This document shows positions 39,139-46,512 of a stretch of DNA of 64,000 nucleotides, one piece after another. Where the stretch lies: assembly GCF_003334815.1 (NCBI RefSeq), contig NZ_QOWO01000020.1. One strand, given 5' to 3'. Both the position numbers and the translations under genes were made by a program. The notes beneath the pieces were generated by a model that ran no database searches, was not told the DNA's origin, and worked only from the letters and a program-made list of their open reading frames with translations. The DNA comes from Escherichia coli. GTDB lineage: Bacteria; Pseudomonadota; Gammaproteobacteria; Enterobacterales; Enterobacteriaceae. How positions within the stretch are numbered: position 1 is the stretch's first letter; each line of letters opens with the position of its first letter.

Positions 39139-40446
39139 TTATTTGCTACTGTCCGGGCCGCGTTCACCGGTTGCTACCGGATTTTTTGGATCGCTGCTCC
39201 ATTCGTACCAGCCGCCGTCATACACGGAAACATTCTTCCAACCCATGGCGCGTGCGTACATAAAGGTTTCGGACGCGCGCCAGCCGGTGCCGCAGTAGAA
39301 TGAAACTTGCTGCTCTGGTTTGATATTCCACGCTTTCCACATAGCGGTAATATCATCGGCGCTGCGCATGGTGCCATCCGGGTTATGAAAATCTTCCATA
39401 TGCGTCGAGTCGCTACCAGCGTGTCCCCAACGTGCGCCGGCTATTTCACCTTTTGGTTTAATATAGCTGTAACCGCTGGTCGTACCGATAAATTCTGGCC
39501 ACGAACGAATGCTCACCAGCGATGCATCCTGGCGATGCAGCAGTCCACGGGCCTGTTCCATATCGAGCATCAACTGCGGTTGTGCCGGGATCTTCACGCC
39601 GAAATCCGGTTCCGCTTTCACTTTCGGTGGCGTTCCGCGCTCAACAGGCAGTCCCGCGTCGGACCAGGTTTGCCAGCCGCCATCCAGCAGGCGCACATCT
39701 TTCACGCCAGCATAAAGCATAATCTGCGCCACACGCGCTGCAGCGTATACGTCACGCCCATACAGAATGACCGTGGTGTCATGGCGAATGCCGTGTTTTG
39801 CCAGCATCGCTTTTAGTTGTTCATCAGAAACTTTGTTCCACAGCGGTTCACTTTCCACTTCGTTGGTATCGATGTAGTCAGCGCCGGGAATATGGCTGAT
39901 AAGGTAAAGCTTAGGAGCGCCCCAGGCCGCTTCAATGACTTTCCAGTCACCGGCAGGTTTCGCCGTAACCTCTTTACCTTGTTGCAGGTCGTGCAGCCAT
40001 TGCGGATAAACCAGCTGCTCAAAATGCGGCAGTTTTTGCAGACGGGAAGGTTCGCTTAGCGCGTCACTCAGGATGGAGATATGCGTTAAACCTGCTTTTT
40101 GCAGTCGCGTTTTGACGGCGTCGACATCTTTGTCATTACCGTACAGCGCCACCGGAGCATCGGTTTTCAGGTTATGTTGCTTGATCCACGCGTTGAGCTG
40201 TTCGGTGCTCATTTTGTCAAGCCAGCTGGCAGAGAGGTTTAAGGCGGCAGGTTCATGACCAGAAGGGCCATTTAAGGTTTGTGGCCAGCCGTTATAAAAC
40301 GCGCTGGGGCGAGTATCTATCGCTTTGCCATTTTGTTGTTGAAGCTGGTCAAGTGTAAGAGGCTTCGCCAGTTCAGCGGCCCACGAAGAAGCGCAAGCCA
40401 GCCCTAAAGCCATTGCCAGCGCGGTCATTTGAGAAACACGTTTCAT
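39139..40446 (-). CDS. ynjE: periplasmic rhodanese-domain thiosulfate sulfurtransferase YnjE, 435 aa
   Basis: ORF 39139..40461; signal peptide; active-site CGTGWR; start at MKRVSQMTALA. Confidence 0.85.
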   Translation of the reverse strand: MKRVSQMTALAMALGLACASSWAAELAKPLTLDQLQQQNGKAIDTRPSAFYNGWPQTLNGPSGHEPAALNLSASWLDKMSTEQLNAWIKQHNLKTDAPVALYGNDKDVDAVKTRLQKAGLTHISILSDALSEPSRLQKLPHFEQLVYPQWLHDLQQGKEVTAKPAGDWKVIEAAWGAPKLYLISHIPGADYIDTNEVESEPLWNKVSDEQLKAMLAKHGIRHDTTVILYGRDVYAAARVAQIMLYAGVKDVRLLDGGWQTWSDAGLPVERGTPPKVKAEPDFGVKIPAQPQLMLDMEQARGLLHRQDASLVSIRSWPEFIGTTSGYSYIKPKGEIAGARWGHAGSDSTHMEDFHNPDGTMRSADDITAMWKAWNIKPEQQVSFYCGTGWRASETFMYARAMGWKNVSVYDGGWYEWSSDPKNPVATGERGPDSSK

Positions 40447-40512
40447 CGAAAATCCCGACATTGTAGTTTTGAGTGCGCCATTCTGAACTGACGCATTGAG
40501 AAAAACTTTGCG

Positions 40513-41166
40513 TTATCGCAGTTTGTTGTAATTTTCTGACCACTGCGCCATATCCAGAACAGAACTATCAGCAGGAACATCCTGGAGATCGTGCGTTACC
40601 TGAACGACGGGGATCGCCAGGGCGCGAACTTCGCTGAACACCCACTGGCGAAAATTATCGCGCAGAGCCACATCAAGACGGCTGAATGGCTCATCCAGGA
40701 GTAACGCTTTTGGTTGGGCGAGAAGGGCGCGTAGTAGAGCAACGCGCGCTCGCTGACCGCCAGACAAAGTGGCAGGATCCTGATGGAAAGCTCCCTCAAG
40801 GCCTGAACGCTCAAGTGCATCATTCACGGCATTACGTCGGGCATTCCCTTTAAGTGTCGCCGGTAGCGCCAGCAGTAAATTTTGCCCGACACTGAACTGG
40901 TCAAATAACAGTGCATCCTGAAAAAGAATGCCAATCTGACGCTGTGCGGTGGGTAGGATGTCAATCCGTTGCTCATTGAGCCATAGCTCACCTGTACAAG
41001 AAAACTGTTCGGCCAGTGCACCAATCATCCATGAAAACAGAGTGGATTTTCCACAGCCAGACGGCCCCATTAACGTGACAATGTCACCTTTATCCACCGT
41101 AAAGTTAACGTTTGTCAGCAAGCGGCTTTCTGGTAAACGTAGCGAAACATTTTTCACGCAGAGCAT
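40513..41166 (-). CDS. ynjD: ABC transporter ATP-binding protein YnjD, 217 aa
   Basis: ORF 40513..41253; Walker A GPSGCGKST; start codon overlaps the ynjC stop. Confidence 0.85.
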   Translation of the reverse strand: MLCVKNVSLRLPESRLLTNVNFTVDKGDIVTLMGPSGCGKSTLFSWMIGALAEQFSCTGELWLNEQRIDILPTAQRQIGILFQDALLFDQFSVGQNLLLALPATLKGNARRNAVNDALERSGLEGAFHQDPATLSGGQRARVALLRALLAQPKALLLDEPFSRLDVALRDNFRQWVFSEVRALAIPVVQVTHDLQDVPADSSVLDMAQWSENYNKLR

Positions 41167-45119: not shown

Positions 45120-45797
45120 TTATTCGGCGATTTTAAAGGTAACCGTTGCCAGCGTGTTATCCGCCGGGAGAACTGAGGCATTGCCTTTGAATTTAACTTC
45201 ACCACGTTTTTCAACCGCACCATAAGTGTATGTTGCATTGCTGACGATGCCGACCGGGCAGCTATCCAGACACACCAGGCAACCCGTTTTCTTCTCTTCT
45301 GCTGCCGTTAAATTACCGCCAAAGCGCATGTCCAGTTTCTTGCCATTACTGTCAACAATCACTTCATCGAAGGAATACGCTTTTGCCGCCCCTTGCCAGT
45401 TGACCGAAATATCCAGTTTGCTGCCTGTGACATGAGTCGTTTCTTTATTATCCATCGTCATGTTTTCGCCCGGCGTACCACCTGCCTCTTTCAGGGCTTC
45501 ATAAAATGCTTTCGGGGTCGCATAACCCATAAACAGCGATTTATGTCCGTTGGAGCCATCTTTAAACACAATACCGTGACGAGTGTCGTCGGTGAGGAAA
45601 CGACCATTAATTTGCACCAGCATGGTTACCGTATGGTTATTGGCATCGACACGCAGCGGTTGGCTGTTCGAAAGTCCGTCGTATTCCACTTTTGCCGCCG
45701 CATTCTCTTGTTGATCGCAGCCGCTAAGCCCAGCAACAGCCAGTAAACAGAGTGCAGCCAGTCCTTTTTTCCATGACACTGAATAATGTTGCAACAT
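45120..45797 (-). CDS. ydjY: lipoprotein YdjY with Cys-rich ferredoxin-like motif, 225 aa
   Basis: ORF 45120..45959; lipobox LSGC; CLVCLDSCP motif; start at MLQHYSVSWKK. Confidence 0.8.
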   Translation of the reverse strand: MLQHYSVSWKKGLAALCLLAVAGLSGCDQQENAAAKVEYDGLSNSQPLRVDANNHTVTMLVQINGRFLTDDTRHGIVFKDGSNGHKSLFMGYATPKAFYEALKEAGGTPGENMTMDNKETTHVTGSKLDISVNWQGAAKAYSFDEVIVDSNGKKLDMRFGGNLTAAEEKKTGCLVCLDSCPVGIVSNATYTYGAVEKRGEVKFKGNASVLPADNTLATVTFKIAE

Positions 45798-45801
45798 CGT
45801 T

Positions 45802-46512
45802 CTATCCTTCATTTTTTGGGTGAGTAAGTGGGCTGCGGCGCGAAGCAGACAGATCCACATGTTTGTGTCGGGCGTAGAGTTTTGCGAGCTGGACGAGAAT
45901 AAACAGCGCCAGGCCCGCCAGACAGAGTTGTAAAATAAAGCGCAGCGTAATGCCTTCATTGGCGAGATCGCTTGCCATCACGGTATAAATAACAATACCG
46001 GGTAGGGTCGTGAGTGCCGAAATAAGGGTATAAGGCCAGAAGGCGATTGTGGTTAATCCGTAAGCGTAATTTTGAATATTGTAAGGAAACAACGGGATTA
46101 AGCGGGTCAGAATAAGAAAATCAATACCGTTACGCGCAATGCCTTTTTCAATGGCCTGGAAGGTATTGCTATGGCCAACGTATTTCAGCAGTAAATCACG
46201 TCCCAGCCAGCGCGCCAGCAGGAATGAGCACGAGGAGGCCAGCGTGGCGGCAATTAATGAGAGTAGTGTCCCTAAGAGCGGGCCAAAAACTATTCCTCCC
46301 GCGATCACCAGTATGCTTCCTGGTAACAGCAAGAGGGTGGCAATGATGAATAACAGAATATAGAGGCTATAGCCGAAAAATCCGCTCTGGCGGATGAGTG
46401 TCTGTAAGTGGGGTAAATCGGTGAGCAGATCGAATAAACCGAAAGCGTGGATAGCGTAAATGACCAGCGCAAAAATAAGACAGGCAAAAAGAAATTTACG
46501 CTCAGCGTTCAT
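45802..46512 (-). CDS. ydjX: DedA/TVP38 family inner membrane protein YdjX, 236 aa
   Basis: ORF 45802..46560; start at MNAERKFLFAC. Confidence 0.85.
   Translation of the reverse strand: MNAERKFLFACLIFALVIYAIHAFGLFDLLTDLPHLQTLIRQSGFFGYSLYILLFIIATLLLLPGSILVIAGGIVFGPLLGTLLSLIAATLASSCSFLLARWLGRDLLLKYVGHSNTFQAIEKGIARNGIDFLILTRLIPLFPYNIQNYAYGLTTIAFWPYTLISALTTLPGIVIYTVMASDLANEGITLRFILQLCLAGLALFILVQLAKLYARHKHVDLSASRRSPLTHPKNEG

Follow-up and report, generated by a model that had tools for sequence, protein, structure and literature searches.

Bacterial DedA proteins with an established function, such as UptA and PetA, transport lipids, whereas YdjZ of Escherichia coli has been placed in the COG0398 subfamily, which is without the undecaprenyl-phosphate-binding residues and has no known substrate (PMC10127716). 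PetA was found through the synteny of its gene with phosphatidylserine synthase and decarboxylase genes. In anaerobic selenium and sulfur metabolism, YedE, YedF, and DUF3343 have been singled out as selenium-linked proteins, with no mention of a DedA, ydj, or ynj gene (Lin 2015, PMC5322559), and even the selenium role of YedE is a prediction (PMC5322559). The anaerobic ergothioneine synthase EanB of Chlorobium limicola forms C-S bonds, takes its sulfur from polysulfide, and relies on residues Tyr353, Cys412, and Arg417 (PMC10903977, PMC9516567). The group working on EanB lists YnjE among EanB-like enzymes without assigned function that may sulfurize heterocycles (PMC9516567). Here, we compare with these systems nine E. 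coli genes, ydjXYZ-ynjABCD, ynjE, and ynjF, from a 64,000-nt stretch of DNA (the window).

The nine genes are a co-regulated unit conserved across phyla, with YdjY and the DedA proteins YdjZ/YdjX as its core. In other bacteria, this core is fused or adjacent to rhodaneses, cytoplasmic disulfide-reductase-type proteins, and sulfur or selenium carrier genes. We tentatively read the nine genes as a single FNR-induced envelope system that may move zero-valent sulfur and/or selenium between periplasm and cytoplasm, a reading that we regard as quite possible, if short of probable. Its cargo, its transport direction, and every transfer step of the relay are what we infer from comparisons of sequences and gene neighborhoods.

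A YdjY/DedA core and its partners

YdjY (45120-45797, minus strand; coordinates of genes are those of the RefSeq annotation transferred onto the window) is a periplasmic lipoprotein that matches the domain model NF040466 (146.2 bits for a cut-off of 50), and its homologs carry PF27149. Its lipobox, L-S-G-C27, is followed by Asp28 at position +2. Since aspartate after the lipobox cysteine confers inner-membrane retention in E. coli lipoprotein sorting, YdjY is predicted to stay anchored in the inner membrane. The family is rare, with 388 members in a profile search of 1.84 billion representative proteins, and strongly conserved: the proteins of Firmicutes, Desulfobacterota, and Campylobacterota are 46-62% identical to that of E. 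coli, and 42 columns are invariant across phyla, including TRH74, FGGN162, and the cysteines of the motif C173-x2-C176-x3-C180. The AlphaFold model (predicted local distance difference test [pLDDT], 90) yielded no informative fold match in the PDB. Only sub-threshold Fer4 fragments were found around the cysteine motif, with a copy of Pfam-A that does not hold the YdjY family; thus, the old "ferredoxin" label of YdjY is unsupported. Our literature search retrieved no publication on the function of YdjY, YnjB, or YnjF.

Scanning 100,044 species genomes for YdjY gave 120 matches. We kept 80 loci, 73 of them outside Escherichia and Citrobacter; many are contigs of metagenome-assembled genomes (MAGs) and are phylogenetically non-independent. 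A DedA gene adjoins ydjY in 64 of these 73 loci. This gene encodes a YdjZ ortholog (50-58% identity) in Firmicutes and Campylobacterota, where a YdjX-like gene often accompanies it. In Desulfobacterota, the adjoining DedA protein is YdjX-like and fused to an N-terminal Fer4/CCG (HdrD-like) domain. A membrane protein of 125-150 amino acids, recognized by sequence in 43 loci but in none of Escherichia, follows YdjY or is fused to DedA. A YdjZ-like DedA::YdjY fusion (P0433) is a single example on a short contig, and the best 150 family representatives also include a FA_hydroxylase::YdjY fusion (P0481) and tandem YdjY proteins.

YdjX (45802-46512, minus strand) and YdjZ (44398-45105, minus strand) share 26% identity. 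Both are inner-membrane proteins of the DedA/VTT family (PF09335), named TVP38/TMEM64 in RefSeq, and their orthologs at 55-56% identity carry VTT_dom. They fall far short of the UptA equivalog (27.5 bits for YdjX and 36.4 for YdjZ; cut-off, 250). YdjZ-type proteins have a cysteine, Cys113, that is invariant in 58 sequences and predicted to lie in the membrane, whereas YdjX-type proteins have no conserved cysteine. YdjX-type partners (31-39% identity) adjoin YdjZ-type genes in other phyla.

The mature part of YnjE (39139-40446, minus strand) is that of the crystallized three-domain rhodanese 3IPO/2WLR except for one substitution (Pro66 here, Leu in the crystal). YnjE starts with a Sec-type signal peptide, MKRVSQMTALAMALGLACASSWA, has the C-terminal rhodanese loop C385-G-T-G-W-R, and is treated as periplasmic by other authors (PMC10215317). 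The best solved relatives, apart from YnjE, are the "sulfurtransferase" chains 6KTV/6KVW/6H98 (E value, ~1e-88); the 6KTV/6H98 series shares 41% identity with YnjE across 391 residues, rising to 54% within the catalytic part. We take these chains to be EanB, whose residue numbers in the literature match at +3 in the chain, an offset due to the tag. YnjE is homologous to EanB over its full length, with Tyr326, Cys385, and Arg390 as equivalents of Tyr353, Cys412, and Arg417, and the equivalents of EanB Glu345 (Glu318) and Tyr411 also kept. The EanB Tyr375 equivalent is Thr in YnjE, and Thr or Ser in YnjE and three of four relatives from other phyla. Partner and location do not correspond to those of EanB: YnjE has a signal peptide, and no EanA histidine methyltransferase is annotated between position 1 and about 50,800 of the window.

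YnjE-like triple rhodaneses (32-40% identity) occur in five YdjY loci. They adjoin YdjY in Catonella, a Peptostreptococcaceae MAG, and Campylobacter, and they retain Glu318, Tyr326, Cys385, and Arg390. Among the best 150 family representatives, YdjY is also fused to rhodanese domains, in the arrangements rhodanese::YdjY (P0389, P0394), YdjY::rhodanese (P0391), and YdjY::rhodanese::YdjY (P0462), and Foldseek independently recovered such fusions from the AlphaFold Database. As a link between YdjY and rhodanese, such fusions are firmer than neighborhood alone. Therefore, the placement of ynjE with the block in the preliminary description of this locus is borne out by adjacency in three lineages and by fusion.

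The remaining genes encode a cytoplasmic thiol protein, an ATP-binding cassette (ABC) importer, and a lipid synthase-type enzyme. YnjA (43850-44398, minus strand) belongs to the CMD/AhpD-like proteins by its RefSeq name, its CxxC motif, and matches to CMD/AhpD structures in the PDB (E values, 3e-9 to 2e-5); its closest NCBIfam model is a YciW-related (seleno)protein (6e-29, below cut-off). The periplasmic binding protein YnjB (42674-43840, minus strand) has a signal peptide and an SBP_bac_8 domain and matches a sole family, PRK11622 (560 bits; cut-off, 203). Its neighbors in a PDB profile search and in a Foldseek search with its model (pLDDT 85), i.e., PotD, PhnS, FutA, TbpA, and YdcS, are only 12-19% identical; they bind mainly polyamines, phosphonates, iron, or thiamine, with some sugar binders and no sulfate or thiosulfate binder among them. 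As these are generic relatives, the ligand of YnjB is not readable from them. Among its invariant columns, Trp, Phe, Tyr, Asp, and Glu are frequent. YnjC (41166-42701, minus strand) is a fused double permease of 511 amino acids with weak permease matches in both halves, and its Firmicutes relatives are two separate genes. All ABC ATPase matches of YnjD (40513-41166, minus strand; 217 amino acids) stay below equivalog cut-offs. YnjBCD does not qualify as a ThiBPQ system either, with a ThiQ score of 130 bits for cut-offs of 245-298 and an E value of 0.16 for TbpA (2QRY) in the profile search. YnjF (38510-39130, plus strand), convergent with ynjE, is a CDP-alcohol phosphatidyltransferase; its motif, D68-G-A-L-A-R73-x7-G81-x3-D85-x3-D89, has a spacer one residue shorter than D-G-x2-A-R-x8-G-x3-D-x3-D. 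The nearest families are archaetidylinositol-phosphate/PIP synthases (AIPS/PIPS-like), with scores below their cut-offs.

In an evolution experiment, a P213S substitution in YnjC conferred a strong fitness gain under colistin (PMC9184624). This effect links the block to the cell envelope and is explained by none of the models considered here.

The accessory genes recur with the core. YnjB-like proteins (32-37% identity), together with permeases and an ATPase, are present in 11 non-Escherichia YdjY loci, and YnjF-like genes lie inside YdjY/DedA/YnjB operons (L026, L031, L041, L047, L053, L055, and L093). Besides L093, YnjF-like transferases are found in six Firmicute loci, five of which also have YnjB. 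The clearest counterpart is L093, an unrelated contig with seven of the nine E. coli genes and sulfur/selenium carriers in place of YnjA. It encodes, in order, a YdjZ-like protein (56% identity), a rhodanese::YdjY fusion (44%), a small membrane protein, a YdjX-like protein (32%), YedF (189 bits; cut-off, 110) directly after this DedA gene, and DUF3343. The converging genes specify a CCG protein, a YnjF-like protein, YnjB (430 bits; cut-off, 203), two permeases, and a YnjD-like protein. With subsets recurring in at least three phyla, the genes form one functional module, as the preliminary description had supposed.

Selenium genes are further neighbors of YdjY. Searches with tblastn and NCBIfam models located SelD 0.5-4.2 kb from YdjY in four Desulfobacterota loci, apparently within the operon in one (L024) and in the order SelD-YedF-YdjY in another (L076). 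A rough chance expectation is 0.3 loci, which gives P of ~5e-4 for four matches, or ~5e-3 when two loci that share synteny (L075 and L078) count as one. YedF is near YdjY in seven loci (L093 and six more), SclA-like NifS in three, and DUF3343 in three. YedF, DUF3343, and SclA-like proteins have no match in the E. coli window (YedE was not searched for), and the block does not classify as a YedE/YedF system. A selD-topB operon does occupy 31905-34914 of the window (plus strand), with selD 5.6 kb from ynjF. This proximity is notable because SelD, YedF, and DUF3343 adjoin YdjY in other phyla; taken alone, it is weak evidence.

Published regulation also unites the E. coli genes. The ydjXYZ-ynjABCD operon is directly activated by FNR from a site at -60.5, and ynjE forms a unit of its own, likewise activated by FNR, whose site is at -41.5 (Myers 2013, PMC3688515). 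Upstream of ydjX, a palindrome, TTGAGAAAAATCAA (46622-46635, 110-123 nt before the start codon), has one mismatch to TTGAT-N4-ATCAA and is consistent with the reported -60.5 site. In the 200 nt before the ynjE start codon, no FNR box was found within three mismatches. The published ynjE site is thus not confirmable from the sequence, and only a promoter-like hexamer pair, TTCAGA-16-TACAAT (40487-40460), identified by consensus scan only, is present in the ynjD-ynjE spacer (40447-40512, minus strand). Independent-component analysis of E. coli transcriptomes assigned ydjXYZ-ynjABCD, ynjE, yedEF, and yjiLM to one uncharacterized iModulon, the activity of which rises under anaerobiosis and falls in fnr and arcA mutants, and which was tied by its authors to molybdenum and selenium use (PMC7888660). 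Independent transcription and regulation of ynjE, which the preliminary description had named as an argument against its proposal, therefore holds only in part: ynjE has its own FNR unit (PMC3688515), but it shares regulator and iModulon with the operon (PMC7888660), so that the two are not independently regulated. Mild induction of ynjAB by BaeR overproduction has also been reported (PMC2731931).

Two further neighborhoods of YdjY deserve mention. YjiM/YjiL-like HGD-D and BcrAD genes lie 5 kb downstream of a rhodanese::YdjY gene in L091 (7001-14852; same as L092). Apart from one BcrAD-type gene in L073, they were seen only there and were discarded as recurrent partners. An ArsC/Spx-family gene (~119 amino acids, CxxC) is found ~5 kb from YdjY in L035, L042, L057, L060, L065, and L069-L071. 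These loci (Gemella and a Streptococcus sp. contig) share one synteny and are effectively a single lineage, so that the association may be due to chance.

A candidate sulfur/selenium relay and its alternatives

In the relay that we tentatively favor, YnjE would, in an EanB-like manner, load sulfur or selenium on Cys385 from polysulfide or thiol-bound selenium and hand it to the three invariant cysteines of YdjY. The YdjZ/YdjX pair might then pass it through the membrane with the involvement of YdjZ Cys113, and the CxxC of YnjA would release it to carriers of the YedF/DUF3343/SelD kind, a task that, in other bacteria, may fall to a CCG protein of the HdrD type or to a flavoprotein disulfide reductase. 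YnjBCD, of the PotD/ThiB class, and YnjF could be conserved accessories that supply or anchor an organic co-substrate. The proposal draws support from the presence of cysteines at each stage (YdjY C173/C176/C180, YdjZ Cys113, the YnjA CxxC, and the CCG-DedA proteins of Desulfobacterota), from the rhodanese fusions, the DedA pairing, the SelD/YedF/DUF3343 neighbors, and the use of polysulfide by EanB, and, in E. coli, from yedEF co-expression and the activation of both units by FNR.

Several observations weigh against this relay. The selenium-gene neighbors of YdjY are confined to Desulfobacterota and one contig of unknown origin, most YdjY loci show only YdjY and a DedA gene, and we know of no selenium use in the YdjY hosts Gemella, Facklamia, and Loigolactobacillus. 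DedA proteins of established function move lipids, not atoms. Operons with ArsS hold the same YdjY/DedA core and point to an arsenic or a sugar/lipid product, and the relay leaves YnjBCD and YnjF without a clear role. As for YnjE itself, deletion of its gene made no significant difference to a Ph3P=S assay (PMC12042036), ynjE alone in a rhodanese-null strain caused only a small rise in sulfane sulfur (PMC10215317), and a report cited in PMC3688515 has the protein acting with cytoplasmic molybdenum cofactor enzymes.

The main rival, which we hold to be unlikely, is a lipid head-group pathway. YnjBCD would import an alcohol, YnjF would join it to cytidine diphosphate (CDP)-diacylglycerol, YdjX/YdjZ would flip the resulting phospholipid, and YdjY and YnjE would act on the outer leaflet. 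In other bacteria, the head group would be made by ArsS with a kinase, TIGR04282, and TIGR04283 rather than imported. The lipid substrates of UptA and PetA, the synteny of the latter with lipid synthase genes, the YnjF-like genes within operons of the six Firmicute loci and L093, the FA_hydroxylase::YdjY fusion, and the colistin phenotype of ynjC all speak for such a pathway. In addition, 12 loci have TIGR04283, usually together with TIGR04282 and a kinase of the APH type, within an operon that also holds YdjY and both types of DedA; kinase, CofC-like nucleotidyltransferase, and GT2 amount to a head-group activation set. Nevertheless, the pathway leaves the rhodanese fusions, the invariant cysteines, and the SelD/YedF/DUF3343 neighbors unaccounted for, and neither YnjF nor GT2 is present in most loci. 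Two apparently mutually exclusive patterns looked attractive, namely ArsS or YnjB (9 and 11 loci, none shared) and YnjF or GT2 (6 and 12 loci, none shared). The expected overlaps are only ~1.4 and ~1.0, respectively, neither pattern is significant on the margins, and the lineages are not independent; therefore, neither was used as evidence.

A second possibility, distinctly unlikely in our view, is periplasmic sulfurization, in which YnjE, like EanB, would put polysulfide sulfur on a heterocycle or carbon nucleophile and YnjBCD would import the substrate or the product, e.g., an ergothioneine-like betaine. It is consistent with the kept active-site residues of EanB, with the suggestion of the EanB group cited above, with the invariant aromatic and acidic columns of YnjB, and with its neighbors, which include binders of cationic or zwitterionic amines (polyamines, thiamine, 2-aminoethylphosphonate) besides those of iron and sugars. 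However, an EanA-type methyltransferase is not among the annotated genes nearby, three loci with YnjE-like proteins (L030, L062, and L082) are without YnjB, the Tyr375 position is Thr or Ser, and YdjY and the DedA pair are left without a role.

Elements of the relay and of the lipid pathway can be merged, although we consider the outcome improbable. YnjBCD would import a precursor from which YnjF builds a lipid head group with a thiol, YnjE/YdjY would load it with the chalcogen on the periplasmic side, and YdjX/YdjZ would flip the loaded lipid, whereupon cytoplasmic CxxC or CCG reductases would liberate selenide or sulfide for YedF, DUF3343, and SelD. In anaerobes, "ArsS" would then produce the carrier head group instead of arsenosugars. 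In such a scheme, the block might be the long-sought dedicated anaerobic route for trace selenium or sulfane sulfur, unlike any known transporter.

The ArsS operons also raise the improbable option of organoarsenical handling, whereby the block would be an ArsS-less remnant of an arsenosugar/arsenolipid system that takes up and processes arsenic compounds, and the YdjY cysteines would bind As(III). ArsS was found in nine YdjY loci (451 bits; cut-off, 300), and Campylobacter concisus and other hosts have ArsS, TIGR04282, and TIGR04283 in one operon with YdjY and both DedA types. We also took the reverse look, at the neighborhoods of four unrelated ArsS genes. The Pelotomaculum locus encodes GT2, DUF2064, CMD, ArsS, a DedA protein 55% identical to YdjZ, and a rhodanese, i.e., a YdjZ ortholog stands beside ArsS. 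The Myxococcota locus has an ArsM-like methyltransferase, ArsS, a nucleoside phosphorylase, a YdjX-like DedA protein (36%), a flavoprotein disulfide reductase, and DUF2064 with GT2. On the other side, tblastn detected no ArsS, ArsM, TIGR04282, or TIGR04283 match anywhere in the window, so the E. coli block is no ArsS cluster. The known regulator is FNR, and ArsR control or arsenic induction is not reported in the publications that we consulted. Moreover, a Desulfobacterota locus (L049, 9110-13240) is ordered YdjY, small membrane protein, CMD, ArsS, YedF. The position of ArsS between YdjY and YedF renders the arsenic label of these anaerobe enzymes questionable, and the "arsenosugar" designation of ArsS in these Desulfobacterota may deserve re-examination.

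Other features of ArsS neighborhoods were recorded in passing. In a further Desulfobacterota locus (L073:10001-18931), ArsS is near SclA-like NifS and YedF. A gene for a 110-amino-acid CMD/AhpD-like CxxC protein directly precedes ArsS in three unrelated MAGs (L086:7650-9044, L088:7653-9050, and L089:7665-8987), a Chloroherpetonaceae and a Pelotomaculum among them, a pairing of which we know no earlier description. The CxxC of YnjA aligns with that of these CMD proteins adjoining ArsS; at only 18-26% identity, orthology was rejected and the proteins are treated as analogous. A literature search returned no publication mentioning both DedA and arsenosugar.

The preliminary description had instead suggested uptake or processing of a thiosulfate-like or persulfide compound. 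Worked out as a model in which YnjBCD imports thiosulfate, a sulfonate, or a persulfide compound and YnjE acts on it as a thiosulfate sulfurtransferase, this proposal has little probability in our view. The RefSeq product name of YnjE (thiosulfate sulfurtransferase), the weak similarity of permease and ATPase to CysT and CysA, and the resemblance of YnjA to YciW-type proteins would fit it. Nonetheless, YnjBCD does not qualify as a CysPUWA system: the CysT score is 22 bits for cut-offs of 246-415, and YnjB is not of the Sbp/CysP type but of the PotD/ThiB/PhnS class. Purified YnjE has poor or no activity with thiosulfate and 3-mercaptopyruvate (PMC10215317), and its nearest solved relative, EanB, uses polysulfide. 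Published regulation is by FNR, and control by sulfur limitation is not reported in the publications that we consulted. ABC import of a thiosulfate-like anion and a thiosulfate-consuming YnjE are thus both unsupported, whereas the persulfide or polysulfide chemistry suggested along with them is plausible. Finally, it is most improbable that YnjE serves molybdenum cofactor synthesis as a sulfur carrier in the cytoplasm and lies beside the transporter only by chance, since its published annotation as a molybdopterin synthase sulfurtransferase (PMC3688515, PMC7888660) is at odds with its Sec signal peptide, its periplasmic assignment by other authors (PMC10215317), and, in other phyla, the linkage or fusion of extracytoplasmic YdjY with YnjE-like genes and rhodanese domains.

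Gene map and surroundings

The window is E. coli chromosome (100% identity), and ydjXYZ-ynjABCD with ynjE is a core-genome block, previously known in this species: the 8.7-kb stretch around it was recovered from 5,425 of 5,426 complete genomes, with coverage of at least 80% in 5,393 of them. The eight minus-strand genes fill 39139-46512 exactly, from the ynjE stop to the ydjX start, and the identities first assigned to them (a DedA pair, a Cys-motif lipoprotein, an AhpD-like protein, a binding protein, a double permease, an ATPase, and a triple rhodanese) hold. They had been described as tightly packed with overlapping stops and starts. The packing is indeed tight, with three of the seven junctions overlapping (ydjZ/ynjA by 1 nt, ATGA; ynjB/ynjC by 28 nt; ynjC/ynjD by 1 nt) and three more of at most 14 nt (ydjX/ydjY, 4 nt; ydjY/ydjZ, 14 nt; ynjA/ynjB, 9 nt), so overlap applies only partly. 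These sizes make the seven upstream genes, ydjX to ynjD, look like one translationally coupled operon, with ynjE slightly apart. Although ynjE adjoins ynjD directly downstream, as stated before, a gap of 66 nt separates the two and a promoter of its own, dependent on FNR, has been reported (PMC3688515). In an E. coli-like protein (P0362, 451 amino acids), one open reading frame joins YdjX and YdjY across the 4-nt gap, presumably by a frameshift or an assembly error rather than as a true fusion.

The gene set given previously did not include ynjF, whose stop codon is 8 nt from that of ynjE. The 3' end of ynjE contains a terminator-like hairpin for ynjF, CCGGTTGCTACCGG with a T run after it (39167-39180), and the ynjF/ynjE pair has been listed as an excludon (PMC12288877). 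Next to ynjF, a CDP-alcohol transferase gene, stands nudG, a CTP pyrophosphohydrolase gene (minus strand), whose 3' end overlaps that of ynjH (plus strand) by 35 nt (38016-38050). Elsewhere in the window, ydjL (18580-19656) has an internal stop codon in this strain, and a frameshifted IS5-like ISKpn26 transposase gene is inserted between cdgI and yeaH (8422-9401). PADLOC found no defence-family match. A permissive Rfam search of 38000-48000 gave one chance-level match only, which argues for no riboswitch or leader there.

Relation to known systems

Our comparison unites nine E. coli orphan genes in a single system and provides YdjY, a rare and very strongly conserved protein, with a concrete candidate role. 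It makes the substrate question of COG0398 DedA proteins, the closest bacterial relatives of the eukaryotic proteins TMEM41B and VMP1, testable in E. coli. The same holds for the anaerobic acquisition or routing of trace selenium or zero-valent sulfur, for which YedE/YedF have so far been the only, predicted, carriers. It also questions the arsenic label of many ArsS clusters in anaerobes. If true, the relay would bear on the selenoprotein-dependent formate metabolism of gut bacteria.

Among described systems, YedE/YedF and YeeE(TsuA)/YeeD(TsuB) resemble the proposed relay in combining a membrane protein of conserved cysteines with a TusA-like cytoplasmic carrier. YedF itself adjoins DedA in L093 and is near YdjY in six more loci, and yedEF are co-expressed with the block (PMC7888660). 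In place of a YedE/YeeE fold, the membrane component of the block is a DedA pair, and further parts are a periplasmic lipoprotein, a periplasmic triple rhodanese, an ABC importer, and a lipid synthase. EanB and YnjE both consist of three rhodanese domains, are 41% identical, and agree at the positions of Tyr353, Cys412, and Arg417, but YnjE has a signal peptide, lacks an EanA partner, and carries Thr at the Tyr375 position. PspE, a single-domain E. coli protein, is, like YnjE, a periplasmic rhodanese; unlike it, PspE is an efficient thiosulfate enzyme (PMC10215317).

The UptA (undecaprenyl phosphate) and PetA (phosphatidylethanolamine) transporters belong to the same superfamily as YdjX/YdjZ and parallel them in the synteny of DedA with a CDP-alcohol phosphatidyltransferase-type lipid synthase. 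Yet YdjX and YdjZ are COG0398 proteins without the undecaprenyl-phosphate-binding residues and far below the UptA cut-off, and YdjZ has its invariant cysteine. Importers of the PotD/ThiB/PhnS/FbpA class are akin to YnjBCD in the fold class of the binding protein, in having fused or paired permeases, and in their ATPase, whereas no cut-off of those families is reached and YnjB has a family of its own, PRK11622. Finally, ArsS/TIGR04282/TIGR04283 clusters share with the block YdjZ- and YdjX-type DedA proteins, rhodanese, CMD/CxxC, and disulfide-reductase partners, and differ from it in their three signature enzymes, none of which is encoded in the E. coli window.

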